From the IMG/VR virus record IMGVR_UViG_3300034103_002265: a DNA stretch of 64,000 bases; one strand, written 5' to 3'. The first letter of the stretch is position 1; each line of letters opens with the position of its first letter. This stretch comes from a virus. The notes under the pieces are model-generated. The model saw nothing but the letters and a program-made list of their open reading frames with translations, was not told the origin of the DNA and did no database searches. Shown here in pieces: positions 4,938 to 60,397 of this stretch. The position numbers and the translations under genes are program-made.

Positions 4938-5012
4938 GCGCTAGAGGCTAATTGGAATAGCAAGGGTCTCTAAAGCCCGAGATAGCAGGTTCGATCCCTG
5001 TCTAGCGCACCA
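4938..5012 (+). tRNA. tRNA with CUA anticodon (amber-reading, suppressor-type), CCA encoded
   Basis: Hand-folded cloverleaf: acceptor gcgctag/ctagcgc (7 bp), D arm gcta-attggaa-tagc, anticodon arm agggt-cTCTAaa-gcccg, V agata, T arm gcagg-ttcgatc-cctgt, discriminator A, CCA. Confidence 0.7.
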
Positions 5013-5306: not shown

Positions 5307-5876
5307 GTGTTTCACTTTAATAAGAAGCACTTAGAAGATCAAACCATCCCAATGTGGGTGTTAAAAACTCAAGGTGAGAGTTTTTATGTCAATCATGTAG
5401 ATTGTTCAGTTCCGTGGAGTACTAAAGAAACTGTAGACAATCCGCACACTAAAGGCAGCATCAAGGTCAAAGATTGTTTATTGACCATTAACGAAGATAA
5501 CTGTGCTACAATTTCTCAACTTACTTCTGTAGATAAGATTAGACTGCGTAATCAGAAGTTAGGTATTACTCGCGTCATTGTTCTAGAAGGCAAAGATTAT
5601 TTGCGTTTTCGAGAAGCCATTAAGCAACTTAAAATCAAACATAGTCCTTTCAAAAGTATTGGTGGGGCCTGTAGTTCTAGGTTCTATATCTGTGACATCT
5701 TGGATAAGAAGCAATACACTTTGTTAAGTTTGGCCCTTAGTGATATCTCGAGTTTTAGGCCACTTATGCCAAATGAAGGGTACTATAAAGTCTACGACGA
5801 CCCAAAGTATCAAAAAGTCAACGATATCGATTTGGATGCCGTTGACTACGATGATGAAGAAGATGAAAATGCTTGA
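5307..5876 (+). CDS. Hypothetical protein with acidic C-terminus
   Basis: 189 aa ORF. Confidence 0.4.
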   Translation: MFHFNKKHLEDQTIPMWVLKTQGESFYVNHVDCSVPWSTKETVDNPHTKGSIKVKDCLLTINEDNCATISQLTSVDKIRLRNQKLGITRVIVLEGKDYLRFREAIKQLKIKHSPFKSIGGACSSRFYICDILDKKQYTLLSLALSDISSFRPLMPNEGYYKVYDDPKYQKVNDIDLDAVDYDDEEDENA

Positions 5877-5924
5877 CAAAGGTTTCGACAGCATATACAA
5901 TATTAAAAATTTCAAGAGTATATC

Positions 5925-6200
5925 ATGAGCAGTGGTAAAATATCGGAAGACCGTAAAACAATATCTTTTGAATTAAACTCCCATCAAATGGTAGGTCATT
6001 TTACACTGGCTCACATAGATGGTAACGAGTTGAACCCAGACAAGATTTACATGAAACTAGATACGCAAATCATTCACGATACTACCAATGTCAACAACAC
6101 GAATAGTATTATAATTGACAAACGATATGCAAAAGTATTATCCATCTGGTTCAAGCATGCCGCAGAATTAATGGACGAATGGTATAAAGAAGAAGATTAA
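5925..6200 (+). CDS. Hypothetical protein
   Basis: 91 aa ORF. Confidence 0.4.
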   Translation: MSSGKISEDRKTISFELNSHQMVGHFTLAHIDGNELNPDKIYMKLDTQIIHDTTNVNNTNSIIIDKRYAKVLSIWFKHAAELMDEWYKEED

Positions 6201-6225
6201 ATAAGAATATTGCTGTAAAGACCGC

Positions 6226-6465
6226 AAGGAAAGATACGACGAGAAATGAGTCTCGGACCCGGGGGCAGTGCCCGGCATCTCCACCTAAGTGTATTTGGTA
6301 TATTTAGGTGGGGATGACACAGTTTCGACGGGGCAAAGAGTAACAGAGTGGACAGCACGGTAGGCGATGACCGTAAATCAAGCAAAATTAATACTCGCAA
6401 ACGACGAAGTATTCGCAATGGCCGCTTGAGGCCTGCTGAGGTAGGAATACCAAGAAACAGAAACT
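6226..6465 (+). ncRNA. ssrA: tmRNA (ssrA), circularly permuted two-piece gene: acceptor piece upstream of coding piece. The 5' end of the acceptor piece is uncertain.
   Basis: Coding piece GGGGATGACACAGTTTCGACGGGG at 6311 closely resembles the canonical tmRNA 5' end. The tag frame GCA AAC GAC GAA GTA TTC GCA ATG GCC GCT TGA (6397..6429) encodes ANDEVFAMAA. Upstream T-arm-like ccggg-ggcagtg-cccgg plus catctcc-A-CC (6283..6296) pairs with GGGGATG including G3.U70. A terminator follows at 6470..6496. Confidence 0.7.
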
Positions 6466-6469
6466 CCAA

Positions 6470-6496
6470 AAGGCTACTTCGGTAGCCTTTTTTTTG
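6470..6496 (+). terminator. Rho-independent terminator
   Basis: aggctac-ttcg-gtagcct followed by T8. Confidence 0.8.
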
Positions 6497-6510
6497 TTAT
6501 AATAACATAG

Positions 6511-7494
6511 ATGAAAAATTTTTTCGAATTAGAACATATTTTTGTTGTGTTTCCCCCCGGGTCATCAGGGAATTTTATTTCTAATTTAATTAGAAATATA
6601 ATTTCTAATACCATGACTGAACAGCAGTTATCGTCTAGCGGAAATGCGCACCACGATCCTGGTACTGGAAATCCGTTAGGATGCAACATTTTATATCTTT
6701 ACCCTAATCATCAGTTGATAACAGATAATGACAAAATAAATTTTTATAAAAAAGATATCGAAACTAAATTTTTAAATGATTTAACTGTTAAAGTTTCTTG
6801 GACACATGATTTTTCTAATATAAGTTTTTACAAAAAGTTATTTCCAAATTGTAAAATTTTAGTAATTACCACCGAAACTCGAAAAGAAAAAATAACTGCA
6901 ATGATATTGCAAGAATTGAAAAATACTTTAGATACTCACGGGTATGTGTTTGTTGATGATGAAGAATTTCGTAAACCTTTAATTATTCGAACTGCTCGAA
7001 TGTTAAAAGAAATGTCAAATATAAAAGATATGGATTATTTGATAAAATTGCTAGACAATGGAAGATCACCTAAAAATTTTCCATTGTTTGTTTATCTTAC
7101 AATATATAGCATGATGACTTATTATGAGTTTACTAATGAAAAATACGATTTATTAGATTATTGCATAAATCCTGCTGGAACAATAACAGGAATTTGGGAT
7201 CAACAAATAATAAAAGTAATAGGACCTAAATATCAAGATTGTGTTACTGATGACTGTATCAAACTACACTTCTCTGATATTGTCACCAAAAATTCAAAAA
7301 GTTTAATAGACAGACTAGAAATACTATTAGGTATAATTTTAACAGAAAAGCAAAAAATATATGTTTCAAATTCATTAAAACAATATATTGAAAAACAAAA
7401 TCAAGAAGTTTTATCAAATCCTAAAAAATATTTCGAAACAATAAAATCACAGGCTCTTTTACGCATCCAAGAATTAAAAAACGAAACAGATTGA
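6511..7494 (+). CDS. Hypothetical protein (sulfotransferase-like fold is only a guess)
   Basis: 327 aa ORF with N-terminal FVVFPPGSSGNFISN. Confidence 0.35.
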   Translation: MKNFFELEHIFVVFPPGSSGNFISNLIRNIISNTMTEQQLSSSGNAHHDPGTGNPLGCNILYLYPNHQLITDNDKINFYKKDIETKFLNDLTVKVSWTHDFSNISFYKKLFPNCKILVITTETRKEKITAMILQELKNTLDTHGYVFVDDEEFRKPLIIRTARMLKEMSNIKDMDYLIKLLDNGRSPKNFPLFVYLTIYSMMTYYEFTNEKYDLLDYCINPAGTITGIWDQQIIKVIGPKYQDCVTDDCIKLHFSDIVTKNSKSLIDRLEILLGIILTEKQKIYVSNSLKQYIEKQNQEVLSNPKKYFETIKSQALLRIQELKNETD

Positions 7495-10080: not shown

Positions 10081-10476
10081 ATGAACGGAAAAATTACATT
10101 AATCACTCCCCCTGATATTTTTGAAAACGATTCAAGAAGTATTTTATTTTTGCATCTGTCCGATGAAGACCAAGAATCAGTCAGCAAATGGTTGGCACAG
10201 TCAGACATTACGGAAGATATTAATATATACTTTTACGATCATGATAAAGACCTCGATTGGTTGTTTCATGCCTTTGCTAACTGTGATTTCAAATTTATTG
10301 ATATTAGTAGATCTAAAATTGCAACCGGTGTGCTAGTAGGATATTTTTTAGGAAAGAAAAATACTTTCTATAAAATTGATAACGAAACTCAATCAGAAAT
10401 TTTTCAGTACATTAATCAAAATAGAATAACTAATATAAATTCCTTTTTAGAAAGAGCATTAAATGGCAAAAATTGA
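10081..10476 (+). CDS. Hypothetical protein
   Basis: 131 aa ORF. Confidence 0.4.
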   Translation: MNGKITLITPPDIFENDSRSILFLHLSDEDQESVSKWLAQSDITEDINIYFYDHDKDLDWLFHAFANCDFKFIDISRSKIATGVLVGYFLGKKNTFYKIDNETQSEIFQYINQNRITNINSFLERALNGKN

Positions 10477-11695
10477 TTCTAACCATGTTTGTTCATTTTG
10501 TAATAAGAGCAAAGAAGATGTTGAAAAATTGATAGTTGGTGAACAGGCTGCTATATGCAACGACTGTGTAGACCTTTGTGTTGATATTTTAAAGGACGAA
10601 AAAGTTAAAAGTTTACCAATTCAGAAAAAATTGTTAAATCCTGTAGATATTAAAGAATATCTTGATCAATATGTTATTGGCCAAGAAGAAGCAAAAATTG
10701 CCTTAAGCGTGGCAGTCAGTCAGCATTTTAAAAGAATTAATAATCCTAGCAAAGATATTGAACTAGAAAAAACCAACGTGCTGCTGTTAGGACCCACTGG
10801 TTGTGGTAAAACTATGATGGCAAGAAAGATTGCCGAATTCCTAGACTTACCGTTTGCTATCTGCGATGCTACTAGTATTACAGAAGCAGGCTATGTTGGC
10901 GACGATGTTGAAAGTATTTTAACTAGACTAATAAATGAAGCCGACGGCGATATAACAAAGGCCAGTCGTGGAATCGTTTACATAGATGAAATTGATAAAA
11001 TTTCTAAAAAAGGTGAAAATGTCAGCATCACTCGTGATGTAAGTGGTGAAGGTGTTCAGCAAGCATTGTTAAAAATGATAGAAGGTTCTGTATGCAGAGT
11101 TCCTTCATCGGGAAGGCGCAAGCATCCGGGATCTGAAGTTCAAGAAATCGATACAAGAGGAATTCTTTTTATCTGTGGCGGAGCATTTGTTGGTATTGAT
11201 GCTGTTGTTCGACAAAGAAAAGATGCAAAAAGTATTGGCTTTAGTGCTGAAATAAAAACTGATTCTGAAATTAACAACTACTACAGAGAAGTCAATACCA
11301 AGGATCTTATCAAGTATGGTTTGATCCCTGAATTTGTTGGTAGGTTTGGACTTCATATCAACGTTGATGAATTGTCAGTAAAAGAATTAGTTCGAGTATT
11401 GAAAGAACCAAGGAACAGTCTTATTAATCAGTACCAATATCTTTTTAAGTTAGATAAAATTGATCTGACATTTGATGATGAAAGTCTAGAAAGCATAGCG
11501 CAAAAAGCCAAAGAACTTAAAACCAATGCTCGTGGATTAAAAAATATTATAGAAAAGATATTGTTACCTTATCAATTTGATGCTATTAATCTTGTCGAAC
11601 GCGGATTAAATGCAATTAGGATAAGTAAAGACACAGTTGAGGGAAAGACTGCAATACTAATTTTTGATAAAAAGAAAAATGAACAAAACAAATAA
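10463..11695 (+). CDS. clpX: ATP-dependent protease ATPase subunit ClpX-like
   Basis: N-terminal C4 zinc finger (CSFCNK...CNDC), Walker A GPTGCGKT, Walker B IVYIDEIDK, ClpX-like length. Confidence 0.85.
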   Translation: MAKIDSNHVCSFCNKSKEDVEKLIVGEQAAICNDCVDLCVDILKDEKVKSLPIQKKLLNPVDIKEYLDQYVIGQEEAKIALSVAVSQHFKRINNPSKDIELEKTNVLLLGPTGCGKTMMARKIAEFLDLPFAICDATSITEAGYVGDDVESILTRLINEADGDITKASRGIVYIDEIDKISKKGENVSITRDVSGEGVQQALLKMIEGSVCRVPSSGRRKHPGSEVQEIDTRGILFICGGAFVGIDAVVRQRKDAKSIGFSAEIKTDSEINNYYREVNTKDLIKYGLIPEFVGRFGLHINVDELSVKELVRVLKEPRNSLINQYQYLFKLDKIDLTFDDESLESIAQKAKELKTNARGLKNIIEKILLPYQFDAINLVERGLNAIRISKDTVEGKTAILIFDKKKNEQNK

Positions 11696-11699
11696 ACTA

Positions 11700-11912
11700 A
11701 TGGGAAATACGGTTATTGTTGGCGACATGCCACTTAACACAGCATTAAAAAGGTTCAAGCAAAAAGTTGATGATTCTGGAGTACTTGAAGTACTTAGAAA
11801 GAAAATGCATTACGAAAAACCAACCACAACGAGAAAAAGAAAAGCAGGTGCTGCTAGAGCACGTTGGTTAAAAAAATTATCCGAACAAGAACTACCTAAA
11901 AAAATGTATTGA
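11700..11912 (+). CDS. rpsU: Ribosomal protein bS21 homolog
   Basis: MGNTVIVGDMPLNTALKRFKQKVDDSGVLEVLRKKMHYEKPTTTRKRK... aligns with E. coli S21 ([35 protein letters not shown]). Start taken at the in-frame ATG at 11700, just after the clpX stop. Confidence 0.8.
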   Translation: MGNTVIVGDMPLNTALKRFKQKVDDSGVLEVLRKKMHYEKPTTTRKRKAGAARARWLKKLSEQELPKKMY

Positions 11913-11942
11913 CAATAATGTTTTGCTATGTTAATATAAATC

Positions 11943-12473
11943 ATGGCAAAACATTTAATGATAGACATGGAGACTATGGCAGTCTCCCCGAGAGCAGTGG
12001 TCCTAACTTTGGGCGCTGTACACTTTAATCCCTGGGGTAATGGTTACAGTGATAAACTTTATTTTAAAGTAAGTCTCGATGATCAGGATGCCTTAGGCAG
12101 AGAAATTGATCCCAACACACTAGATTGGTGGGCAAAACAAGATCCAAAAATAATGGAAGAGGCATTTAGTGCTGATGATAGGATTCCATTATCCGATGCA
12201 ATGGATCAGTTCCATAAGTTTGCTTGGGGTTGCGATGCATTTTGGAGTCACGGTGCTACTTTCGACTTGATGATTATCCAAGATATCTATACACAACTTA
12301 AAAAACCGTTACCTTGGAATTATTGGCAGTTGCGGGATACTCGTACACTATTTGATCTCGGATATGATCCAGACATGCCGCAAGGCAACAAACATGATGC
12401 CCTACAAGATGCTATTCGGCAATCAGTTGGTGTACAAAATATCTATACCAAAATGAAAATAAGGGAAAAATAA
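11943..12473 (+). CDS. DEDDh 3'-5' exonuclease (DnaQ / RNase T-like)
   Basis: Exo I IDMET, ...FDL..., Exo III HDALQDA. Confidence 0.7.
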   Translation: MAKHLMIDMETMAVSPRAVVLTLGAVHFNPWGNGYSDKLYFKVSLDDQDALGREIDPNTLDWWAKQDPKIMEEAFSADDRIPLSDAMDQFHKFAWGCDAFWSHGATFDLMIIQDIYTQLKKPLPWNYWQLRDTRTLFDLGYDPDMPQGNKHDALQDAIRQSVGVQNIYTKMKIREK

Positions 12474-17243: not shown

Positions 17244-18647
17244 ATGAACGCATTTGTTGAAGCAGTTGAAAATGTTCAACTGGAAACTCGTACCGCAAAT
17301 GGTATGAAGTCTTTTGATTCGTCAAAGTCTGCCCTTGTTGACCTGTTCTTCTCTATCGGTGCAAGCCGTGGTAAGAACCTGAACGTACCGTTTACCAAGG
17401 CTCTCAAGCAGGACGAAACTCTGGCACTACGTCTGTTGATGTGGGCTCGTGACGTTCGTGGCGGAGCCGGTGAACGTCAAATCGTTCGCGACATTCTGTT
17501 GCATTTGGAAAAGAACTATCCAGAAGCACTGGATCGTGTGTTCGCACATATTCCAGAATTTGGTCGTTGGGACGACATGTTGGTCTTTAAGACCAAGCGT
17601 TTTAAGAATCGTGCATACACTATGATCGGTGACGCACTTCGTGCTCGTAACGGTCTGTGTGCCAAGTGGATGCCTCGTCAAGGCTCTATCGCAGTCGAAC
17701 TGCGTAACTTTTTCGGTATGAGCCCAAAGTTCTATCGTAAGAGTCTTGTGTCCTTGACCAAGGTTGTCGAACAAAACATGTGCGCTAACGATTGGACTGG
17801 TATCAACTACAGCCACGTTCCTAGCCTGGCTGCTAGCCGTTACCAAAAGGCTTTTGGCAAGCATGACCCTACAGGGTATGGTGCTTACAAGGCCGCTCTG
17901 GTCAAGGGTGATCCTAGTGTTAAGGTAAATGCAGCCGCAGTTTACCCATATGACGTTATCAAGAGCCGCCGTTTTGGTGGTGCCGATGAAGTCATCCAAG
18001 CACAATGGGATGCGCTGCCTAACTACTGCGGTGACGAACTGGTTCTGCCAGTCTGTGACGTTTCGGGCTCTATGAGTTCGCCAGTAGGTGGTAACGCTAA
18101 CTTGACCTGTATGGATGTCTGTGTCTCGCTGGGCCTATACCTAGCAGACAAGAACAAGGGTCCATTCAAGGATATGTTCCTAACTTTCTCTGAAAAGAGC
18201 AAGTTGCATATCCTTAAGGGCAATCTGCTTGACAAGTTGAACCAACTTGAAAGAGCAGAATGGGGCATGAGCACTAACCTGCACTCGGCATTTGAGGCTG
18301 TCCTCAAGTATGCCAAGGAATGGAAGGTCCCTGAAAAGCACATGCCAAAGTATCTGCTGATCATGAGTGACATGGAATTCAACCACTGCACCAAGTTCGA
18401 TGACTCTGCTATGCAGATGATCGAACGTAAGTATAAGGAAGCAGGATACAATGTTCCTAACATTGTATTTTGGAACCTAAATGCTCGTAGTGGCAACGTT
18501 CCGGTCAAGCATGACAAGCGTGGTGTGGCATTGGTCAGTGGGTTCAGCCCAAGCATCATGACTTCAATCCTAGGTGCGAAGTCTATGGATCCAACATCTG
18601 TGATGTTGGAAACCCTAAACAGCCCACGCTACAGCGTGATCGCTTAA
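17244..18647 (+). CDS. vWA (MIDAS) domain protein, DUF2828/TROVE-like, possibly Ro60-like
   Basis: DVSGSMSS (DxSxS) MIDAS motif; N-terminal ...TANGMKSF...LFFSIG...ARDVRGGAGER; 467 aa. Confidence 0.5.
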   Translation: MNAFVEAVENVQLETRTANGMKSFDSSKSALVDLFFSIGASRGKNLNVPFTKALKQDETLALRLLMWARDVRGGAGERQIVRDILLHLEKNYPEALDRVFAHIPEFGRWDDMLVFKTKRFKNRAYTMIGDALRARNGLCAKWMPRQGSIAVELRNFFGMSPKFYRKSLVSLTKVVEQNMCANDWTGINYSHVPSLAASRYQKAFGKHDPTGYGAYKAALVKGDPSVKVNAAAVYPYDVIKSRRFGGADEVIQAQWDALPNYCGDELVLPVCDVSGSMSSPVGGNANLTCMDVCVSLGLYLADKNKGPFKDMFLTFSEKSKLHILKGNLLDKLNQLERAEWGMSTNLHSAFEAVLKYAKEWKVPEKHMPKYLLIMSDMEFNHCTKFDDSAMQMIERKYKEAGYNVPNIVFWNLNARSGNVPVKHDKRGVALVSGFSPSIMTSILGAKSMDPTSVMLETLNSPRYSVIA

Positions 18648-18792: not shown

Positions 18793-19821
18793 ATGTCTAA
18801 GAAGTACGGTACACTAGTATATATTGGCAGGTTTCAACCGGTTCATACCGCACATATTGAAACTATTCGTCGTGCCACAGAGTTGGCTCGACAAGTTGTA
18901 ATTATCGTAGGTAGTGCTAACCAACCGCGTACCTACAAGAATCCGTTTACCAGCAAAGAACGGGAAGCCATGTTGATCGGTGCTCTGCGTGGTGTTGGTG
19001 ATCCGACATGTTCAATTCACGTTGACCACAACATCGACACCATTTACAACGATCAGGCTTGGGCTACCCGTGTACAGGGTATCCATAGCAAGTATCGTGT
19101 TCTTGGTACCAAGGATGGCATTATCGGCCATGACAAGGACGAAACCACTTTCTATCTTAAAATGTTCCCGCAATGGGAGCGTGTGGATGTAGAATTGATT
19201 GAGCCACTGAACGCCACTGATATCCGCGACATTTATTTCCGTCGTGATGCTAATCTAAACTTCTTGCGTGGGGTAGTTCCGCAATCTACAATGCAGTTTC
19301 TCAATAGTTTCAAGGAAACACATGCATACGAACAAGTTGTCCGTGAACGTGAATTCATTGCGAATTATCGTAAGCAATATGAAAGTCTGCCCTATCCTCC
19401 AGTATTCGTTACTGTGGATTCAGTAGTGATTCAGAGTGGGCATGTGTTGATGATTCGTCGTCGTAGTGAACCTGGTAAGGGATTGTGGGCATTGCCTGGT
19501 GGATTCCTGAATGCTGCTAGTGACCGTAGTGTACGTGATGCTGCCATTCGTGAACTACGTGAAGAAACTGGCATCAAAGTTCCTGCTCCGGTTTTGACAG
19601 GAAGTATCAAAGATGTTAAAGTTTTTGATGCTGTGGAACGTAGTGCCAGGGGCAGGACAATCACACATGCCTTCAAGATCGTGTTGCCTGATGGCGAACT
19701 GCCTAAGGTCAAGGGACAAGATGATGCTGATCGTGCCCGTTGGGTGCCACTAGTAGATGTTAAGTCAGACGAATGTTTTGAAGATCATTGGGAAATTATT
19801 CAACATTTTGTAGGAGCCTAA
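18793..19821 (+). CDS. nadM: Bifunctional NMN adenylyltransferase / Nudix hydrolase (NadM-Nudix)
   Basis: GRFQPVHTAH nucleotidyltransferase motif and Nudix box GLWALPGGFLNAASDRSVRDAAIRELREETG. Confidence 0.85.
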   Translation: MSKKYGTLVYIGRFQPVHTAHIETIRRATELARQVVIIVGSANQPRTYKNPFTSKEREAMLIGALRGVGDPTCSIHVDHNIDTIYNDQAWATRVQGIHSKYRVLGTKDGIIGHDKDETTFYLKMFPQWERVDVELIEPLNATDIRDIYFRRDANLNFLRGVVPQSTMQFLNSFKETHAYEQVVREREFIANYRKQYESLPYPPVFVTVDSVVIQSGHVLMIRRRSEPGKGLWALPGGFLNAASDRSVRDAAIRELREETGIKVPAPVLTGSIKDVKVFDAVERSARGRTITHAFKIVLPDGELPKVKGQDDADRARWVPLVDVKSDECFEDHWEIIQHFVGA

Positions 19822-23133: not shown

Positions 23134-24531
23134 ATGAAGTTAGCAAGAAACATTATCCTGAACACAGACTCATACAAGGTCTCCATGTTCAACCAATACC
23201 CACTAGGAACCACTGGTGTTTATTCGTATATCGAAAGTCGAGGGGGTCGATACGATAGAACTGTATTCTTCGGACTACAGGCTTTTATCAAGGAATACCT
23301 GCTTGAGCCCATCACTCAAGCAGACATCGAAATTGCTGAAGAAATTCTTACCGCACACGGTGAGCCCTTTAACCGCCAAGGATGGCAATACATTCTGGAT
23401 AAGCACGGTGGATTTCTCCCAGTTGTTATCCGAGCCGTCCCAGAAGGAACAGTTGTACCGGTTAAGAATGTACTTGCCACAATTGAAAACACTGACCCAG
23501 AATGCTTCTGGCTGACCACTTGGCTAGAAACTGCTCTGCTACGTGCTATTTGGTATCCAACCACTGTAGCAACACAGAGTTGGCATATTCGTCAACTTAT
23601 TCTTAACTATTTGGAGAAGACCGGTGATCCTAGCCTCATTGATTTTAAACTTCATGACTTTGGTGCTCGTGGTGTATCTAGCCTTGAGTCTGCTGGAATC
23701 GGTGGAGCGGCGCATCTCGTTAACTTTATGGGCACGGACACTATTAGTGGCGTCCTGTATGCTCGTGAATATTACAATGCTGGTGTTGCTGGCTTCAGTA
23801 TTCCTGCCGCCGAACACAGTACAATCACTAGTTGGGGTCGTGACGGGGAGGTAAAGGCATATGAAAACATGGTTAAGCAGTTTGGCCGGCCTGGGTCTAT
23901 TTTTGCAGTGGTCAGCGATAGTTATGATATTTACAACGCGGCATCAAAGCTATGGGGTGAAGAACTTCGCCAGAAGGTTATTGATAGTGGCGCTACCCTT
24001 GTCATCCGTCCTGACAGTGGCGATCCTGTTGAGGTAAATAGTAGACTAATCCAAATTTTGGATAGCAAGTTTGGGAGTACGGTAAATGCCAAGGGATTCC
24101 GAGTTCTCAATAACGTCAGGCTTATCCAAGGAGACGGGATCAACTACAACTCTATTAAGAGTATTCTCGATGCTCTTATGGCCCTTGGCTATAGTGCCGA
24201 TAATATCGCTTTTGGTATGGGCGGTGCCTTACTTCAACAAGTGGATCGCGATACTCAAAAGTTTGCTATGAAGGCTAGTTCGGTTTGTATCAATGGTCAG
24301 TGGATTTCAATTGCCAAGGACCCAGTTACTGATCCAGGCAAGAAGAGCAAGGCTGGTCGTGTTACTCTTTGGAAGAGCGGCAGTGAATTGGTCAGTTCTG
24401 CAGAACAACCACATGGTTGGTATGATCGTAGTGTAGGTGAATTCCACGAAGTGCTAGAAACTGTGTTTGAAAACGGTGTATTGGTCAAGGAAATCAACTT
24501 TGATCAAGTCCGTGCAAACAGCAGGAAATGA
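23134..24531 (+). CDS. nadV: Nicotinamide phosphoribosyltransferase (NAMPT / NadV)
   Basis: N-terminal NIILNTDSYKVSMFNQYP; 465 aa, NAMPT-like length; RBS aaggag. Confidence 0.9.
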   Translation: MKLARNIILNTDSYKVSMFNQYPLGTTGVYSYIESRGGRYDRTVFFGLQAFIKEYLLEPITQADIEIAEEILTAHGEPFNRQGWQYILDKHGGFLPVVIRAVPEGTVVPVKNVLATIENTDPECFWLTTWLETALLRAIWYPTTVATQSWHIRQLILNYLEKTGDPSLIDFKLHDFGARGVSSLESAGIGGAAHLVNFMGTDTISGVLYAREYYNAGVAGFSIPAAEHSTITSWGRDGEVKAYENMVKQFGRPGSIFAVVSDSYDIYNAASKLWGEELRQKVIDSGATLVIRPDSGDPVEVNSRLIQILDSKFGSTVNAKGFRVLNNVRLIQGDGINYNSIKSILDALMALGYSADNIAFGMGGALLQQVDRDTQKFAMKASSVCINGQWISIAKDPVTDPGKKSKAGRVTLWKSGSELVSSAEQPHGWYDRSVGEFHEVLETVFENGVLVKEINFDQVRANSRK

Positions 24532-36545: not shown

Positions 36546-37091
36546 ATGGTACTAAAGGACTTGACAGCAGAAAAACATAAAGAAGCCGAGTCTACACCAT
36601 TCATGAAGGCAGTGTTTAAAAAGACACTGCCTTCGTCATTATGGGCAGACTGGACTTATCAAAAATCATTATTTTATCATGCGATAGAAGGTTCTGCAGG
36701 ATCCTGCGGGCTTTTAAATGATTTACCAGATATTCGCAGAGCATTTTATTTGTATGAAGATTTTCAGGAATTATCAAATGGAAAATTCTCAGTAGAATAT
36801 CGAAAACCTGTATTAGATTATTACTCATACATTATGAGCATTTCTAAGGAACCAAAACGTATTATGGCTCACCTTTATGTATGGCACATGGGAGATATGT
36901 TTGGCGGACAAATGATCAAAAAAATAGTACCTGGGCCACACAGAAATTTAGAATTTAAAGATATTCAAGTACTAATGACTAATATTAGAGCAAAACTAGA
37001 CGACTCGATGGCCGAAGAAGCCAACTGTGCCTTTGATTGGGCAATTAAAATGATGAGAGATTATGACAGTAATTTGGAACAACATAATTAA
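36546..37091 (+). CDS. Heme oxygenase
   Basis: N-terminal LKDLTAEKHKEAESTPFMK, and LYVWHMGDMFGGQMIKK resembling the HO motif YTRYLGDLSGGQVL. Confidence 0.75.
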   Translation: MVLKDLTAEKHKEAESTPFMKAVFKKTLPSSLWADWTYQKSLFYHAIEGSAGSCGLLNDLPDIRRAFYLYEDFQELSNGKFSVEYRKPVLDYYSYIMSISKEPKRIMAHLYVWHMGDMFGGQMIKKIVPGPHRNLEFKDIQVLMTNIRAKLDDSMAEEANCAFDWAIKMMRDYDSNLEQHN

Positions 37092-37743
37092 TTTAGCAGA
37101 AACATTAAAAGAAAAATTCTCTGCAACGGGCAATTGCTACTCAAGCGAAAAAGATAACGGATGGGATAACTATCTTTATTCTAGTAGTTTATATAGAAGA
37201 GCACATATAGAGATTGTTGATTTTAGGGAAACTCATAAAATCTACATTTTACACAGTACAATATTCCCACATTATAACGATTCTAGTCCAATATGGGGAT
37301 TTGATGCTGTGTGTGGTCCAAATAAAATAACTGGTGCTTTTCATGATTTTAGTAACGGTGGAGAAAATACTCATTTTATGATGAAATGGTTTGCGGAAGA
37401 AACTATGCATTACGGTTGGCGAAAACCTAGAGATTTACCGCCCTGGGCAAAGGCTATTTTTAGCCCAAGCATGATTGCTGCCGGTAATATACAAGAAGGC
37501 GAAGAACTTGACGATCTTTGTAAAATTGCTAATAAAAGTGTCGATTACTATTTGAGTAATGTAGGCACGACCCAAAATTGGCCCAATGACTTTCACATGG
37601 TTCAAAATAGGTATTGTCATTATCAAAAGCAAAATCCCCATGTAGTTAATAGTATGATGGCTATGGGAATACCGGAAGAAAAAATAAAAAAATTCGTAGA
37701 CGAAGTTTTGTTCCCAGAAACAAAAGAACTAAGTTATGCATAA
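37063..37743 (+). CDS. Ferredoxin-dependent bilin reductase (PcyA/PebS/PcyX family)
   Basis: Family-typical regions ...ILHSTIFPHY... and ...FDAVCGPNKITGAFHDFS... Overlaps the end of the heme oxygenase gene by 29 nt. Confidence 0.7.
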   Translation: MTVIWNNIINLAETLKEKFSATGNCYSSEKDNGWDNYLYSSSLYRRAHIEIVDFRETHKIYILHSTIFPHYNDSSPIWGFDAVCGPNKITGAFHDFSNGGENTHFMMKWFAEETMHYGWRKPRDLPPWAKAIFSPSMIAAGNIQEGEELDDLCKIANKSVDYYLSNVGTTQNWPNDFHMVQNRYCHYQKQNPHVVNSMMAMGIPEEKIKKFVDEVLFPETKELSYA

Positions 37744-37774
37744 ATATTAAACTGTTAAAAACTAGGGCATAATA

Positions 37775-38866
37775 ATGCGAGCAAAAGAATTTCTTCACGA
37801 AGTAGACGCCAATGTTGCAAAAGTTCAATCGAATATTGTAGATAAAGTTAACACTATCTTCGATATAGATGAATTAAATCAAATTTATTCGTATGTCCGT
37901 AAAATTGATTTAGGAACTGGTTTTGAGCCTATTTTTAGCAAAGATGAAGATTTAAAACAAATTCAGGGTGTACTCAGCAGATCTATCATTGATGCAAAAG
38001 CCACTTTTGAAGAAAAACTAGAATTTGCTAAAGAAATGGCAACCACTGGAATTATTGATATAAACCAGTTGTTAACTCCGGGTGTTAAACAAAATTTGCA
38101 AAGTGTTGTTAAAACTAACTTTCCCAATATATTCAAGCAAATTGCTTCCGATATCTTAAACATTTCTGGTTCTTTTTTATCGGGAACTAAAAAAACAAAT
38201 AGAGGCAAGGGAGAATTTTTCCTAGCCATTGCTAGCCCTTTTATTTCGATGGCCAAAGGAGCCGGTGATCTTGATATCAATACTGGCAAGAATTCAATGG
38301 CAATAGAAGTAAAAGCAGATTTAGGAAGATTAAAAGGAAGAAAAGGTTACGGAACAACCGACACCGCATATAGAGAGATAAAATCAAATAGCAAACTTTT
38401 TCTAAAAAACAACATAAAAGAACCAGAAGGACAGGTAAACAAGCAGCATCCAGATTTTATTGTTACTTTAGGAGCCAAATCTAATTTTTGGTCTCAGTTT
38501 GGTCCCTATTGTATTCAACATGGTGTTGATCCGGGACTGGTTTCCTCTTTTATTAAAAGTCAACTAGAAATTGTAGTACGATCGTTATATATTAATTTAG
38601 ATCGAGAATCAATGGATAGTATGCTTACATCAGTTGATGAAACAACTGGAGTAGTTGATTTTAAAGCATTATCGCCTGCTGTAAAAGTAGCAGCATTTAC
38701 TTATTATCAACAGTCAGACGGATTTGACGGTTTGTTGTTAATTAACGGTGATTCATTAAATTTTATGTACATTCCAGATGCTACAACTTTCCAGCAGTCT
38801 GCTAGATATGCTAGATTAGGTTTTGAAGTTGGACAACAAAACGGAATGCAAGTTACAATTTCTTGA
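37775..38866 (+). CDS. Hypothetical protein
   Basis: 363 aa ORF. Confidence 0.45.
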   Translation: MRAKEFLHEVDANVAKVQSNIVDKVNTIFDIDELNQIYSYVRKIDLGTGFEPIFSKDEDLKQIQGVLSRSIIDAKATFEEKLEFAKEMATTGIIDINQLLTPGVKQNLQSVVKTNFPNIFKQIASDILNISGSFLSGTKKTNRGKGEFFLAIASPFISMAKGAGDLDINTGKNSMAIEVKADLGRLKGRKGYGTTDTAYREIKSNSKLFLKNNIKEPEGQVNKQHPDFIVTLGAKSNFWSQFGPYCIQHGVDPGLVSSFIKSQLEIVVRSLYINLDRESMDSMLTSVDETTGVVDFKALSPAVKVAAFTYYQQSDGFDGLLLINGDSLNFMYIPDATTFQQSARYARLGFEVGQQNGMQVTIS

Positions 38867-38878
38867 TTAAATACGTTT

Positions 38879-39250
38879 ATGGAAATCCTTGCTCTTTTTA
38901 CATTATTGCAAATAAAGCACTACTATGCTGATTTTGTAATACAAACATATGAACAAACCGTTCGTAAGGGTATCTATAGAGATTGGGTAGGGATCAGTCA
39001 CAGCCTAGATCATTTATCGGCCACACTTTTTATCTTAATAATTTTTAATTTTTTTGTTCCTCTTTCGGTACTAGCAATTTTAAGCATCGCATTGTTTGAG
39101 TTCGTCTGCCATTATCACATTGATTGGTTCAAGGTTCATTATGGATGCAAAGATATGACCAGAGGCCTATTCTGGAACCAATTTGGATTAGATCAACTAG
39201 CACATCAATTGACATATATTTTAATGGCTTGGTATTTACTACTGTTATAA
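38879..39250 (+). CDS. Hypothetical membrane protein
   Basis: 123 aa, hydrophobic. Confidence 0.4.
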   Translation: MEILALFTLLQIKHYYADFVIQTYEQTVRKGIYRDWVGISHSLDHLSATLFILIIFNFFVPLSVLAILSIALFEFVCHYHIDWFKVHYGCKDMTRGLFWNQFGLDQLAHQLTYILMAWYLLLL

Positions 39251-39292
39251 TTTCATACAACTGCTCCTTAAATATTAAGTATAGGAGCCACT

Positions 39293-39751
39293 ATGAAATA
39301 TATTATTGTAACACTATGTATAGTCTCGAGCATGTCACATGCAGCCGAGATAGTTCATCAATTTAATAGTCCCAGTTTTTCTGGTATCGGTTTCTCCAGT
39401 CATGCATTGACAATTTACACACAGGAATTAAGTCGTAAATTATCATTGAACGCTGAAAAGAAAGCCGAACTGCTTAAAGCAGAACAAGACGCAAAAAACA
39501 CTACAATGGCTAAATTTATCTCGAATTTAGAATCGAGAGTATATAATGAATTGGCCAGACAAATTACTGAAAAACTTTTTGAAGGTACAGGAACACAGGC
39601 AACTGGAAAGTTTGCATTTAATGGTGGAAATATCGAATACAAAAAGTTAGGCAGCATTTTAGAAATTACCATTACCGACGAAAACGGTAATATTACAACT
39701 ATGACCGTACCAATTGGTGATTTTGGTTGGTTGGCACCAACAGGAGGATAA
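39293..39751 (+). CDS. csgF: Curli assembly component CsgF-like
   Basis: Signal peptide, then VHQFNSPSFSG (E. coli CsgF: TFQFRNPNFGG). Confidence 0.55.
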   Translation: MKYIIVTLCIVSSMSHAAEIVHQFNSPSFSGIGFSSHALTIYTQELSRKLSLNAEKKAELLKAEQDAKNTTMAKFISNLESRVYNELARQITEKLFEGTGTQATGKFAFNGGNIEYKKLGSILEITITDENGNITTMTVPIGDFGWLAPTGG

Positions 39752-39752
39752 T

Positions 39753-40550
39753 ATGAAAAAATTATTGTTATTAACTTCGGTGCTATTAATTACTACAGGA
39801 TGTGCATCTTTGAATTACACTGTTCAAGGATATGACGAACCTGTAGTTACAAAACCATTTGTAAAATCTGAAGAAGGATTAAAAGGGCCAGCAAATGGCC
39901 AAATACCAGTAGCAGTTTACAACTTTAGAGATATGACCGGTCAACGAAAAGCCAGCCAAACAATTGCTAGTTTAAGTTCGGCAGTTACACAAGGCGCAGA
40001 TGCTTACCTTGTTAAAAGCCTACAAGAAATTGGCGGTGGCAAATGGTTTAAAGTATTAGAACGAGGAGGTTTAGATAATCTTATTAAAGAAAGACAGTTA
40101 ATAAGACAAATGAGAGAACTATATCAAGGAAAGGATGCACAACCACTACCCCCAATGTTATTTGCTGGTATGATTCTAGAAGGAGGAATCATAGGTTATG
40201 ACAGCAATTTGTTGAGCGGAGGAACAGGCGCACGAATTCTTGGAATCGGAGCAACAACTGAATATCGTCAAGATGAAGTTACTATCAGTCTTAGAGCGGT
40301 GAGTGTAGCAACTGGTGAAGTTTTAGTTGCTATTAATACAACAAAGACTGTTATAAGTTTCCAAGATAAGGCCGGAATTTTACGTTTCTATGATGCCGGC
40401 ACTAGGGCATTAGAATTAGAAACAGGAAATGCAACAAATGAATCAATGAATAAAGCGGTACAACTTGCAATACACGAAGCGGTTGTCGCAATGATTCATA
40501 AAGGTGCAGAGAATGGCCATTGGGGCTTTAAAACAGAAGAGAAAAAATGA
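39753..40550 (+). CDS. csgG: Curli secretion channel CsgG family lipoprotein
   Basis: Lipobox ITTGC and CsgG-like body (VAVYNFRDMTGQ...GGLDNLIKERQL...GYDSNLLSGG). Start at MKKLLLL after RBS aggagg. Confidence 0.8.
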   Translation: MKKLLLLTSVLLITTGCASLNYTVQGYDEPVVTKPFVKSEEGLKGPANGQIPVAVYNFRDMTGQRKASQTIASLSSAVTQGADAYLVKSLQEIGGGKWFKVLERGGLDNLIKERQLIRQMRELYQGKDAQPLPPMLFAGMILEGGIIGYDSNLLSGGTGARILGIGATTEYRQDEVTISLRAVSVATGEVLVAINTTKTVISFQDKAGILRFYDAGTRALELETGNATNESMNKAVQLAIHEAVVAMIHKGAENGHWGFKTEEKK

Positions 40551-40718
40551 GTTGGTTTAGACGAACACCTCACTACAAGGAAGAACCAAAACATTTACCT
40601 CATAAAAAAAGAAGCCCGATGGCAGAAGAAATTATTCGACAGATAGAAGAAATTCGGTCAACATCGAATAAAAATCCTATTAATAATGATAAGGATAGAA
40701 AAAAGGAGCGAACCTAAA

Positions 40719-41393
40719 ATGTTAAGAAAGATAAAATTATCTATTCTTGCTAGCATGTTGTTTACAGGTATTGCATTTGCTGATAACTCAGTTTATATAC
40801 AGCAATCTGGAAATAGCAATACTGTTACAATTACACAAGTTGGTAGTACCAATAGAGTAGGTGCAAGTGGAATTGGAAATCAAAGCATTATTAACGGATC
40901 TAACAATAATTTGTCTGTTACTCAAACAGGAGCAGGCAATATGTTAGATTATGATGTTGTTGGTAATGGAAACACAGTTACAAAAACCGTAACTGGAGAT
41001 ACTAATCAAATCACTTTCACCTGCGGCGACGGGACAACTGGTTGTACCAATGTAACTAGCACAATGTCCTTGCAAGGAAATAATAATACAATTACAAGTA
41101 CTTTGAAAGGAAATAGTATTAATAATACATTGAATATTACAGGTGATAACAATTCAGTAACACAATCTATACTTACTAGTCTAAGTACAAGCCAAATTAC
41201 TATATTAGGTGATAGTAATCTTTTTACATCTAGTATGTCAGGTGCTGGTGCAGGTCTAGGTCATAGTTTAGTTGCTGCTGTTACTGGAACAAGCAATAAT
41301 CATTCTGTGACACAAAGTGGAACTGTTAATACCAGTGTTACTATAACAACCACAGGTAATAGCAATACTGTAACAATTAATACTGGCAATTAA
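40719..41393 (+). CDS. Curlin-repeat secreted protein (CsgA/CsgB-like amyloid subunit candidate)
   Basis: Signal peptide, then imperfect repeats of the type SGNSNTVTITQVGSTN / GSNNNLSVTQTGAGN (S-x5-Q-x-G-x-x-N). Confidence 0.6.
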   Translation: MLRKIKLSILASMLFTGIAFADNSVYIQQSGNSNTVTITQVGSTNRVGASGIGNQSIINGSNNNLSVTQTGAGNMLDYDVVGNGNTVTKTVTGDTNQITFTCGDGTTGCTNVTSTMSLQGNNNTITSTLKGNSINNTLNITGDNNSVTQSILTSLSTSQITILGDSNLFTSSMSGAGAGLGHSLVAAVTGTSNNHSVTQSGTVNTSVTITTTGNSNTVTINTGN

Positions 41394-42481
41394 TGAAATT
41401 TATTTGTTTATTATTTTTCTTTTTGTTTTCAACAAACGTATTTGCAATCGGTAAAATTACCGAAGTGCAAGGATCTGCTGTTGAAATAAAAAGAGGAAAA
41501 AACACAATTAAAGGGTCAACGGGCACAACTATCGAATCAAACGATGTTGTGTCCGTTGGATCTGCTAGTAAAATTACTATTACATTTGAAGATAGTTCAA
41601 CTGCAAAAATTTCTGAAAATAGTAAATTAATAATCGACGACTTCGTTTATGATCCCAATGGAAGAAGTAAAAGCAGTATGCGTGTTGGATTAGGAACTGT
41701 TCGAATGGCTAGTGGTGGCATCGCTAAACAAGATTCTAAAAATGTAAACATAAGAACACCTACTGCGGCAATTGCAGTTCGTGGAACAGATTTTGCAATG
41801 ACTGTAGATGAACTTGGTCGCAGTACCGTTGTACTATTGCCAACTTGCAAAAATGATCAAGATGCTCAACGAGTAGAACTTCCTGGAAATTGCACCTGTG
41901 GAAAAATTGATGTAGCGACATCTGCTGGAGTAGTTAGTATGGAAAGTCCGTTTTATGCAACGCATGTTTCTGCTGCTCAAGAAACTCCAACAATTCCGGT
42001 AAGAGTCGATCCGACAATCATGAATGTTAGCGGAGAAGGCAGTTTAAATAAACCGCATCAAGTTGCCAAAGTTGTAGCGGAACATCAAGAAAAGAAAGAA
42101 TCACACAAAGATCGAAGTAAAGCCAGTGCTGATGAACAAAAGGCTGCTAAAGATAGTGGTAAAGAAGTTGATAAGAAAAAAGCAGAATCAGAGAATGATG
42201 CTATAAAAAAGGCATCGGCTGGGGAGTTAAGTGAAATTAAAGTTGCTACAGCAGAAGAAACAAAAATAAATCCTTGTTGGCCTTTTACTAGTTGCGGAAC
42301 TGAAAAAGGATTCAATTGGTATGAACATATTGATCCTTTACGGGGCAACACAATACATGTCAGTACTCTTGAAACAAACGACAACACTACCTACAACATC
42401 AGCGTTAATAATGTTGATATCAGTCAGAAGATAGTAGGCAGTGGAACTAATCACGTTACTATACGACAATGGAACAGATAA
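41393..42481 (+). CDS. Secreted hypothetical protein
   Basis: Signal peptide MKFICLLFFFLFSTNVFA; 362 aa. Confidence 0.45.
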   Translation: MKFICLLFFFLFSTNVFAIGKITEVQGSAVEIKRGKNTIKGSTGTTIESNDVVSVGSASKITITFEDSSTAKISENSKLIIDDFVYDPNGRSKSSMRVGLGTVRMASGGIAKQDSKNVNIRTPTAAIAVRGTDFAMTVDELGRSTVVLLPTCKNDQDAQRVELPGNCTCGKIDVATSAGVVSMESPFYATHVSAAQETPTIPVRVDPTIMNVSGEGSLNKPHQVAKVVAEHQEKKESHKDRSKASADEQKAAKDSGKEVDKKKAESENDAIKKASAGELSEIKVATAEETKINPCWPFTSCGTEKGFNWYEHIDPLRGNTIHVSTLETNDNTTYNISVNNVDISQKIVGSGTNHVTIRQWNR

Positions 42482-44385
42482 TGTTTGGTGCTAGATTAAA
42501 ATATTGGTCTTACCTTTTTGTAGCAGTATTTTTATTACTTTTGAGCAAATTAACATATGCTCAAACAATTAGCAATGGATTAAATTACACTACATATCTG
42601 CCCACATCTGGCGGGTGGACTAGTCCCAACAGAGACTTATTAACACCTTTGACTTCTGGAACAGTATTAAATTTAGATTATAATTGGAACTATGTTTTAG
42701 ACAGCGGAAGAAATGATGGAGTTGTAGTTAAGTTTACAGGTTACTTTAAAGCAGACGCAGCAGGAACATACACATTTGGTATTACAGGTGACGATGGTAT
42801 TGAACTAATAATAAAAAATCAAACAGTTATAAGTTATTGGGCAGATCAAGGACCTACTCTAAGATCTGGATCAATTACTTTAGCAGCAGGAGAAGTAGTT
42901 CCTGTAACAATTTGGTTTTATGAAAACGGCGGGGGCGCTACATTAAGATGGTATCAGCAGATCAACGGAAGTTGGGTAATTGTTCCAACAACTAGTTTAG
43001 CAACTAGCGAAGCCTATTGGGGACCGCAGACTATTTCTACTGCTAATTCTAATATGGGATTCGAAACTAGTACACTACAAAATTGGACTGCTAATAGAGC
43101 AGGAACACAAAATAGTTCTAATTGGGGTTCGAGCGGAGTCGGTGCTAGTGTAGTAACAGGTATAACAAATTTTACACCAGGTGATAATAAAACATGGACT
43201 GTAACACCTTATGGCACATATATGGCTTCTTTGCAGCCCGGTCCTGGCGATGTATCATTTGATCAAATGACCATTGATCTTGGACTAACTTCTGGTGAAG
43301 TAACTGAAATTAAAAATGTTATTGCTGCTCAAGCAGCAGCAGCAGGAGGAGACCCTAATCCTACAGATGCTACATGGTTACGTAGAACAGTATCTTTAAA
43401 ATCGGGTGTTACATATACTATTGCATGGCAATATATTTCAACAGATTACGTTCCATTTAATGATGGAAGTATTATGGTACTGAGACATGCTACTGATGCT
43501 ACAAAGATACCAACACTAAACAATGAACAAAAACGATATGCTTTGTTAGGTTTTACAAATCCCAATACCGGCAATTACAGCGTAGGTAGTTATGGCGCAA
43601 CAGGATGGCAAGTTGCTGTGTTTACTGTGCCCGTTGATGGTGATTATGTTATAGGGTTTAGTTCTTTTAATTTAGGCGATACTGCACTAAGTCCTATTTT
43701 GTTAATAGATGAAATACAAGGAACAACATTACTGAACGGACAACCATTTGCTCCGGTACCACCAAATCCAGGATCTTCTAGTCCCAGTGCAGGACCAGTG
43801 TTATGTTGTGGTGGAAGTGCTAATCAATTTACAGCAAACTCTGCATTCAGTAATAGGGTAACTGGATTTATTGCGAATAATAATGTAGACAATCGAGTTA
43901 TTATTCAACAAATTGGAAATAATAACAATATTACAGTTACACAAAGTGGTAGAAAAAATTACAGTGAAATAGAAATAACAGGGTCTAATAATTCAGTAAC
44001 TACAAATCAAACTAGCAATTCTAATACTTTAGCAAACTACAGTGAATTATATATTTCTGGTAGCGGAAATACAGTTAGTTTAACGCAGTCTAGTACAGGC
44101 GGGAATAAAGGAATTTATGTAACGACAGCAGATTCAACAAATAATATAACTATAAATCAAAGTGGTTCAGGAAATCATTATTCTGAATTAAATTTACTTG
44201 GCGGAAACAAGACTGTTAATATAAATCAAAGCGGAAGTGTAGGGCATATGGCCAAGGTAGAACTAAACGGCGGGTCTACTTCTATTAATGTTACGCAATC
44301 TGGATCTACGCAACAATTTTATTCTATTACTCATAACTGTGCTCAAATAAGTTGTTCTGCCATTACAGTTACACAGGGCCAATAA
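42469..44385 (+). CDS. Secreted PA14-domain protein with C-terminal curlin-like repeats
   Basis: PA14-like GYFKADAAGTYTFGITGDDGIELIIKNQ. C-terminal repeats VTQSGRKNYSEIEITGSNNSVTTNQTSNSN...NINQSGSVGH. Confidence 0.55.
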   Translation: MEQIMFGARLKYWSYLFVAVFLLLLSKLTYAQTISNGLNYTTYLPTSGGWTSPNRDLLTPLTSGTVLNLDYNWNYVLDSGRNDGVVVKFTGYFKADAAGTYTFGITGDDGIELIIKNQTVISYWADQGPTLRSGSITLAAGEVVPVTIWFYENGGGATLRWYQQINGSWVIVPTTSLATSEAYWGPQTISTANSNMGFETSTLQNWTANRAGTQNSSNWGSSGVGASVVTGITNFTPGDNKTWTVTPYGTYMASLQPGPGDVSFDQMTIDLGLTSGEVTEIKNVIAAQAAAAGGDPNPTDATWLRRTVSLKSGVTYTIAWQYISTDYVPFNDGSIMVLRHATDATKIPTLNNEQKRYALLGFTNPNTGNYSVGSYGATGWQVAVFTVPVDGDYVIGFSSFNLGDTALSPILLIDEIQGTTLLNGQPFAPVPPNPGSSSPSAGPVLCCGGSANQFTANSAFSNRVTGFIANNNVDNRVIIQQIGNNNNITVTQSGRKNYSEIEITGSNNSVTTNQTSNSNTLANYSELYISGSGNTVSLTQSSTGGNKGIYVTTADSTNNITINQSGSGNHYSELNLLGGNKTVNINQSGSVGHMAKVELNGGSTSINVTQSGSTQQFYSITHNCAQISCSAITVTQGQ

Positions 44386-44409
44386 ATATAATTTTAAGGA
44401 GAAGCCACT

Positions 44410-44736
44410 ATGAAAAAAATAGCAGTGGCGTTCCTATTCTGCTTGACCAGCACCATAGCCAACGCCCAGGGTACTAGTGAATTTAGACAAGTTAATAAGC
44501 CAGTTGTATGTGGTCCTATAGAAACTATACTTAAACATCTTACAGGTCCCGATGTTCGAGAAATGCCCTTTTGGACAGGAAAAGACGATAGTAGGATAGG
44601 AGAATACATGGTTCTTATTAACCCCAAAGATGATACATTTACAATCATACAATTTTCAGATAAAATAGGATGTATCGTAGGTATGGGAAACAAGAACAAT
44701 TTTTTTAAAATTCAGCAAAATTTACAAAGATTGTAA
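44410..44736 (+). CDS. Small secreted protein
   Basis: Signal peptide ...TIANAQG; 108 aa. Confidence 0.4.
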   Translation: MKKIAVAFLFCLTSTIANAQGTSEFRQVNKPVVCGPIETILKHLTGPDVREMPFWTGKDDSRIGEYMVLINPKDDTFTIIQFSDKIGCIVGMGNKNNFFKIQQNLQRL

Positions 44737-44797
44737 CAGTACTGTAATCTTTCTCTGCTAATATAATTGTAAATAATTTTACAACAAGGAGAAAGAT

Positions 44798-45811: not shown

Positions 45812-45825
45812 ATCGCCTACAAAGA

Positions 45826-45880
45826 TAGAGTAGGGCTGGAATTCGTAACCAGCAGTAGGGCCGCAAGGCTCTATTTTTTT
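45826..45880 (+). terminator. Long hairpin terminator
   Basis: atagag...ctctat followed by T7. Confidence 0.6.
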
Positions 45881-45892
45881 GGTAAATAAAAG

Positions 45893-60234: not shown

Positions 60235-60309
60235 GCTCTGTAAGCATTGCTGGCGATGCAGGCGCCTTGTAAGCGTCAGAACCGGGTTCGATTCCTGGAC
60301 AGAGCACCA
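60235..60309 (+). tRNA. tRNA-Thr(UGU)
   Basis: Hand-folded cloverleaf with anticodon loop ctTGTaa; CCA encoded. Confidence 0.8.
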
Positions 60310-60316
60310 GATATTT

Positions 60317-60391: not shown

Positions 60392-60397
60392 AACAAT

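Follow-up and report, generated by a model that had tools for sequence, protein, structure and literature searches.

The betaproteobacterial two-piece tmRNA is the 'third lineage' of such molecules reportedly recognized by Sharkady and Williams in 2004. Among phages, ssrA is encoded by mycobacteriophages (Bxz1 group) and by Bacillus phage G (PMC4131195). In the paper on the phage Melnitz (Buchholz et al., 2022), a tmRNA was encoded by 402 of 18,146 phage genomes (PMC9004378). Two-piece forms made up 53 of those 402, and 50 of the 53 came from aquatic samples; permuted tmRNA was present on 17 of 47 Melnitz-like contigs (PMC9004378). A phage two-piece tmRNA has therefore already been published and the kind of gene reported here is not new (PMC9004378). 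The 2025 tmRNA database contains just 79 phage sequences (PMC11915505).

The window analysed here is the whole 64-kb stretch of DNA from IMG/VR record IMGVR_UViG_3300034103_002265. Its tmRNA is phage-encoded, as are those of the Bxz1 group and of phage G, but the latter are one-piece and non-permuted and have other hosts and other tags. Melnitz has an annotated two-piece tmRNA, with the tag ANDNYVPVDYALAA according to ARAGORN and a score of 106.7 bits for alpha_tmRNA. In both Melnitz and the window, a permuted tmRNA is found in an aquatic T4-like myophage with CsgG/F, a CHASE2 cyclase and ribosomal protein S21, and the T loop is of the alpha type (GGCAGUA in Melnitz, GGCAGUG in the window). 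The Melnitz gene has a 143-nt spacer, an alpha-type tag of 14 residues (ANDNYVPVDYALAA) and alpha_tmRNA as its best model, whereas the window gene has a 24-nt spacer, a beta-type tag of 10 residues and beta_tmRNA as its best model. The former is followed by a glutamine riboswitch, while the latter ends in a plain terminator with no riboswitch match. No DNA similarity between the two was detectable by blastn.

With the betaproteobacterial two-piece tmRNA (RF01850, represented here by Rhodocyclales-type genomes), the window gene shares the gene order, the P2 architecture, a short spacer and the terminal hairpin. The PK1 core AGGCGA...CGTAA...GCAAA and the tag type ANDExFA[LIVM]AA are also in common. 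However, all 19 Rhodocyclales genes have a canonical T loop (UUCGAUU or UUCGACU) and lie on chromosomes of ~62% GC, whereas the T arm of the window gene is alpha-type and the phage DNA around it is 33-43% GC. Over the P2-PK1 segment, identity between the two is only 50-58%. Among the permuted tmRNAs of IMG/VR, the T loop is mostly canonical or of the UGCGAAU type and the spacer mostly 55-110 nt long. The GGCAGUG loop of the window is also unlike most of the viral tag family, and no single locus in IMG/VR matches the window across the whole gene. The mosaic gene, the viral pool in IMG/VR and the nesting of the Rhodocyclales genes in a crude tree are modestly new. The locus is also a clean, structurally validated example of a phage two-piece tmRNA.

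ARAGORN called a permuted tmRNA with the tag ANDEVFAMAA at 6194-6520 (+). Two Rfam models matched at the gathering threshold. The first was tmRNA_permuted (RF04321), with 119.5 bits for a cut-off of 47, E = 1e-22 and the whole model (1-213) matched; the second was beta_tmRNA (RF01850), with 118.8 bits for a cut-off of 84, E = 1e-35 and model positions 1-331 matched. Across the whole gene, beta_tmRNA was the top-scoring member of the clan and alpha_tmRNA (RF01849) was not the best member, nor is the tag of the alpha type (ANDN..., 12-14 residues). The resemblance to tmRNA is well beyond chance. The original prediction had been that of a permuted tmRNA with this same tag, to be checked with ARAGORN and Infernal-type models; these were run, and a permuted tmRNA was returned by ARAGORN and by Rfam. 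Reading the sequence directly, the canonical-like 5' end GGGGATGACACAGTTTCGACGGGG and the mRNA-like tag stretch GCAAACGACGAAGTATTCGCAATGGCCGCTTGA that it described were found at 6310-6333 and 6397-6429, respectively. The assignment to phage DNA also held, phage genes flanking the tmRNA on both sides across the 64 kb. The permuted gene order had been attributed to alphaproteobacteria and some cyanobacteria. This is correct but incomplete, as the order is also that of a betaproteobacterial lineage, whose model scores best here. The explanation of the locus as a whole, in which we have high confidence, is a phage-borne, circularly permuted ssrA that would tag proteins via host factors and would have become an alpha/beta mosaic by module exchange.

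A 90-aa open reading frame (ORF) does exist on the opposite strand at 6197-6469. The chance that it codes for a real protein, with the likeness to tmRNA incidental, is negligible. It begins with TTG and has no translated match in related loci whose DNA is 70-90% identical. No CDS was placed by gene callers over the tmRNA interval on L242 and L245, two independent contigs of the same phage. In addition, the E-values of the Rfam RNA matches at the locus range from 1e-22 to 1e-35. The ORF had already been regarded as spurious from the start, and it is treated as such here.

The gene consists, in order, of an acceptor piece (about 6205-6285), a 24-nt spacer and a coding piece (6310-6497). Its parts and the adjoining features are the following.

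5873-5901, + strand: best sigma-70-like promoter match (TTGACA-17-TACAAT), upstream of a 91-aa ORF (5925-6200)
6197-6469, - strand: mechanical ORF of 90 aa with a TTG start, wholly inside the RNA gene and judged not to be a gene
6211-6257, + strand: 5' part of the acceptor piece with the P2 3' strand (outer 6211-6216, middle 6222-6225, inner 6250-6251 and 6253-6255), from the co-fold and, for inner P2a, Rfam
6259-6275, + strand: T arm CCGGG-GGCAGTG-CCCGG, with the stem at 6259-6263/6271-6275 and the non-canonical, alpha-type T loop GGCAGUG at 6264-6270
6276-6285, + strand: acceptor 3' strand CAUCUCC (6276-6282), discriminator A6283 and CC (6284-6285), from the sequence, Rfam and the co-fold
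6286-6309, + strand: spacer of 24 nt between the pieces, which would be lost on maturation, from the precursor fold
6310-6334, + strand: 5' end of the coding piece, with the acceptor 5' strand GGGGAUG (6310-6316), the D-loop equivalent (6317-6328) and the inner P2a 5' strand (6329-6334)
6348-6357, + strand: middle and outer P2 5' strand, partner of 6211-6225 in the acceptor piece, from the co-fold and covariation
6358-6383, + strand: candidate PK1, with stem 1 at 6358-6361/6370-6373 and stem 2 at 6364-6365/6382-6383 and 6368-6370/6378-6380
6397-6429, + strand: tag frame ANDEVFAMAA, with the resume codon GCA at 6397-6399 and the stop TGA at 6427-6429
6430-6467, + strand: 3' tail of the coding piece, with a small hairpin (6440-6443/6448-6451) and the conserved ACAGAAAC motif
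6468-6497, + strand: intrinsic terminator, with a 10-bp stem, a CUUCGG-type loop and then a T run, corresponding to the last hairpin of the beta_tmRNA model

The T arm and the acceptor 3' strand lie upstream of the GGGG 5' end, as had been predicted, with a gap of 24 nt (6286-6309). All seven pairs of the acceptor stem form between 6310-6316 and 6276-6282. They include G6312·U6280, which is the G3·U70 alanine identity pair that had been pointed out beforehand. The gene does not encode the last A of CCA, position 6286 being a T. In the precursor fold, the spacer lengthens the acceptor stem into a 19-bp hairpin. The tag frame (GCA AAC GAC GAA GTA TTC GCA ATG GCC GCT TGA) comprises 10 codons, opens with an alanine resume codon in a typical context and ends with AA-stop. 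The gene had been thought to start at 6226, but this was corrected because the outer P2 helix occupies 6211-6216; the start is therefore at or before 6211. No promoter-like site was found directly upstream of 6205. The promoter match at 5873-5901 may drive a joint transcript of the 91-aa ORF (5925-6200) and the tmRNA.

For the co-fold, the acceptor piece (6196-6285 plus A) was folded with the coding piece (6310-6497). This gave the 7-bp acceptor stem, the T stem and an intermolecular helix (6211-6216/6352-6357 and 6222-6225/6348-6351). In the Rfam alignments, the acceptor stem, the T arm, inner P2a and the PK1 hairpin were recovered, and outer P2 was marked as mismatched. Covariation was examined in a set of 63 distinct permuted genes, obtained after duplicate removal from the window, 45 viral genes and 19 bacterial genes. 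P2a was 96% paired, with double changes at 5/5 pairs, versus 25-62% for slid partners. The outer P2 was 94% paired, with double changes at 5/6 pairs, versus 35-51% for slid partners. Together, the two helices showed double changes at 10/11 pairs. This support for P2 is independent, because P2 pairing was used neither to choose nor to parse the 63 genes. Pairing of the two pieces through P2 had been set beforehand as a refutation test of the prediction; it was recovered in the co-fold and the covariation agreed with it. A G·U was present at the G3·U70 position in all 63 genes. The pairing figures for the acceptor and T stems are partly circular, as these helices were demanded by the parser, and tag conservation in the first viral set is circular, as its loci were retrieved by tag.

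The stems of PK1 were 59-63% paired versus 18-38% for slid controls, with TA/CG and GC/AT swaps, in an imperfect cross-subfamily alignment. These figures lend the PK1 model moderate support. Several viral loci have exactly the same PK1 sequence. A helix between 6358-6365 and 6431-6438 that appeared in the co-fold was not conserved in relatives, and the PK1 hairpin was preferred to it. Strain-level contigs are 99-100% identical and thus carry no covariation information. The strain variant L242 differs by six substitutions within 5900-6600. Every one of them falls in the upstream ORF and the RNA gene is unchanged, which may be taken as weak evidence of constraint on the RNA gene.

The affinities of the gene differ from one part to another. 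Submitted alone, the acceptor piece (6180-6309) matched alpha_tmRNA best, and the whole gene matched beta_tmRNA best (Rfam). Its T loop GGCAGUG is similar to the alpha-type loops, which are GGCAGUA in Melnitz and GGCgGUA in the alpha consensus. Most loci in a panel of 20 viral ones were beta-type, and three (L038, L083 and L096) leaned towards alpha. The tRNA-like domain of the window was 93-96% identical to that of L038, a locus on a 236-kb viral contig with the tag ANAANDEVFALAA (also given as ANDEVFALAA). Its P2-PK1 segment was 90-92% identical to those of L013, L014 and L120, whose T loops are canonical. By these similarities, the window gene is a mosaic of an alpha-type tRNA-like domain and a P2-PK1/tag region closest to the beta-tag viral pool.

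IMG/VR was also searched with the alpha-like tRNA-like domain, which is free of the circularity of ascertainment by tag. More than 119 contigs with such a domain were obtained, carrying alpha-type tags of the ANDN type (ANDNYAPEMALAA, ANDNFVASEIRLAA and others). Among the matches listed, only L038 and the window join an alpha-like tRNA-like domain to a beta-type decapeptide. L341 and L252 share the tRNA-like domain of the window, are identical to it in PK1 and resemble it in the tail and the terminator, but their tags of 26-29 residues are unrelated. As the scaffolds of L341 and L252 carry the PK1 of the window, the PK1 core, which is also present on some alpha-domain scaffolds, is not exclusive to the beta-tag pool. 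The alpha-type tRNA-like pool occurs in pelagimyophage-like viruses. These distributions suggest module exchange among phage tmRNAs, the tag being fitted to a betaproteobacterial host. Most simply, viral permuted tmRNAs would form a pool whose modules are exchanged, and the tag module of this phage matches the betaproteobacterial degron. The mosaic suggests that a phage can adapt the degradation tag to its host and still keep its own scaffold. The L341 (3645-4031) and L252 (626-1072) genes are permuted tmRNAs whose atypical tags are AKASTGEVTVSGKNVKFSARTAKAESFAV, which does not end in AA, and ANADTFEIGTFSFTGNTVKGGVAVAA, respectively.

A degenerate tag scan (ANDExFAxAA plus stop) retrieved at least 120 loci from IMG/VR and at least 120 from a bacterial genome collection. 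Among the matches listed, the 120 viral loci included 90 permuted tmRNAs and no standard one, and the bacterial loci, nearly all from Betaproteobacteria, included 80 standard and 18 permuted ones. The tag pattern thus appears almost confined, for bacterial genomes and among the matches listed, to Betaproteobacteria. The permuted bacterial loci belong to Rhodocyclales-type genomes (Azonexus/Dechloromonas, Accumulibacter, Thauera, Azoarcus and Methyloversatilis). Median GC among the matches listed was 38% for viral loci, like the window, versus 62% for bacterial loci. The best blastn matches of the window gene were all viral, on contigs of up to 236 kb. Locus L006 is syntenic with the window, and its neighbouring proteins are 53-76% identical to those of the window. 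In the relatives, the spacer was 4-172 nt long. Two tmRNA patterns are matched by well over 200 viral contigs in IMG/VR, and at least 158 of them were called permuted by ARAGORN. The viral pool of permuted tmRNAs in IMG/VR is large and little described, and exceeds what curated databases reflect.

These counts bear on whether the locus could be a passively carried host fragment, arising for example by imprecise excision at an ssrA attachment site and of no use to the phage. Integration at tmRNA genes is common, and fragments of such genes are found in prophages (PMC9004378, PMC4131195). Here, however, the gene is full length and lies among lytic T4-type genes, no integrase match was found among the window ORFs scanned, and strain variants show no substitutions in the gene. 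Its closest relatives are all viral, and the ratio of permuted to standard genes is 90:0 for the 120 viral loci versus 18:80 for the bacterial ones, among the matches listed. A host fragment is therefore very improbable, and the gene is considered below as one of the phage.

Several other loci were noted in these searches. On L006, ARAGORN reported a standard tmRNA (tag EAKHTLGSLLKVIAV) overlapping a permuted one, with the coordinates given as 5307-5633 and 5541-5950; the standard call is probably a false positive produced by the tRNA-like domain of the permuted gene. The tmRNAs of L043 and L067, both from IMG/VR, fall inside the Rhodocyclales clade and have canonical T loops and spacers of 25-29 nt. 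These two loci may be host DNA flanking a prophage or may belong to Rhodocyclales phages. In some other viral loci, the tag is extended at its N-terminus, as in ANVSTFKFWQSPVSVAANDEAFALAA.

Following established tmRNA biology, host RNase P would cleave the precursor at G6310, with 3' trimming at C6285. The unencoded terminal A would be supplied by the host CCA-adding enzyme, and the molecule would be charged with alanine by host AlaRS. Host SmpB and EF-Tu would bring it to ribosomes that have stalled on mRNAs that are broken or lack a stop codon. Translation would then resume at GCA, and the nascent chain would gain ANDEVFAMAA, a presumed ClpXP degron of the betaproteobacterial type. During infection, ribosomes would be kept free and truncated proteins would be cleared while host mRNA is degraded. 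No SmpB family match was found among the scanned window ORFs of at least 105 aa, and no ClpP was found among the scanned window ORFs. As the 64-kb window thus provides no SmpB, function would depend on host SmpB accepting the non-canonical T loop.

A T loop that is non-canonical for a betaproteobacterial setting, with no phage SmpB in the window, could also be expected of a decoy, that is, of an RNA inhibiting host trans-translation by titrating host SmpB, EF-Tu or AlaRS. There is a precedent in mycobacteriophage DS6A, for which a molecule with only the tRNA-like domain was proposed to act as such a decoy (PMC4131195). We consider a decoy unlikely here because the full mRNA-like domain is kept. 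The resume context is complete, the 10-codon frame is intact up to its AA-stop end, and P2 and the candidate PK1 are both present; a decoy would have no need of the mRNA-like part. The T-loop type is, moreover, the norm in alpha-type tmRNAs, which are functional in Alphaproteobacteria. Tagging through host factors is therefore the preferred reading. The alpha/beta mosaic is relevant to how phages, as they take over the cell, handle proteolysis and the rescue of ribosomes, and to where the third two-piece lineage came from.

A neighbour-joining tree was built on 191 columns, with standard betaproteobacterial tmRNAs included; it is crude, and long-branch and compositional artefacts are possible. 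All permuted genes were split from the standard ones in 100/100 bootstraps. The Rhodocyclales genes grouped in one clade in 100/100 bootstraps and the viral genes were monophyletic in only 7/100, so that the Rhodocyclales clade nests within the viral diversity in this tree. A bolder scenario can be put forward tentatively, although we consider it rather doubtful. The beta-type two-piece tmRNA would be primarily virus-borne and would swap modules (tRNA-like domain, PK1 scaffold and tag), and the chromosomal ssrA of Rhodocyclales would descend from a phage gene that replaced a one-piece ancestor. If this were true, the hybrid in the window would be a phage tmRNA caught in the middle of a refit to a new host class, after transitions of the SAR11-to-OM43 type proposed for Melnitz.

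By its gene content, the window comes from a large aquatic T4-like phage, a distant relative of the OM43 phage Melnitz and of the pelagiphage HTVC008M. Its ORFs matched phage rIIA, NAMPT, a Ro/TROVE-like RNA-binding protein, a ClpX-like ATPase, a radical SAM protein, an Rv2179c-like exoribonuclease, AhpC, heme oxygenase, bilin reductase, CsgF, Hsp20, CsgG, an NMNAT/NUDIX protein and a DNA methylase. The CHASE2 cyclase was 38% identical to those of the Methylophilales (OM43) phage Melnitz and the Pelagibacter phage HTVC008M. ARAGORN found 26 tRNA genes at 60235-63970. The tmRNA and the first 20 kb gave no match to GenBank phages by blastn and megablast, and an exact 24-mer scan of IMG/VR gave no match. 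By exact protein look-up, the same phage was found on ~20 metagenome contigs from JGI and ENA, 99-100% identical. L242 and L245 are the ones covering the tmRNA interval, and on them ClpX is followed by ribosomal protein S21. The tmRNA arrangement is thus repeated on independent metagenome contigs.

The ClpX homologue (zf-C4_ClpX + AAA_2) is encoded at 10463-11695 (+), 4 kb downstream of the tmRNA, and is ~51% identical to the ClpX of the jumbo phages Atu_ph07 and Phosso. It belongs to a cluster at 10463-12473 (+) that also includes ribosomal protein S21 (about 11679-11912) and the Rv2179c-like 3'-5' exoribonuclease. A tmRNA-ClpX module is not claimed, as ClpX was linked to tmRNA in 0/120 viral loci among the matches listed.

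A tRNA with the anticodon CUA (amber) lies at 4938-5012 (+), 1.2 kb upstream of the tmRNA. It was labelled tRNA-Pyl by ARAGORN and scored 53.6 bits with the Rfam tRNA model. The stops of 56 window ORFs were TAG (1), TAA (33) and TGA (22). Suppressor tRNAs raise the load on tmRNA. A general link between amber-suppressor-type tRNA and viral tmRNA was rejected, as only one of the 120 related viral loci listed (L086) has such a tRNA nearby. An Rfam tRNA match of 45.5 bits extends over 121 nt at 62405-62525 (+), within the tRNA array, without an ARAGORN call; it may have a long insertion or an intron.

The Ro/TROVE-like protein is encoded at 17244-18647 (+) and matched DUF2828, DUF7788 and PHROG 850 ('RNA-binding protein', E = 7e-145). 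At the gathering threshold, Rfam gave no Y-RNA-like partner for it. An NAD salvage pair lies at 18793-19821 and 23134-24531 (+), comprising an NMNAT-like cytidylyltransferase fused to NUDIX, and NAMPT. Finally, an auxiliary block at 36546-48702 (+) contains heme oxygenase and a ferredoxin-dependent bilin reductase, CsgF/CsgG of curli secretion, a PA14/curlin-repeat protein and the CHASE2-adenylate/guanylate cyclase. This block is shared in kind with Melnitz and HTVC008M.
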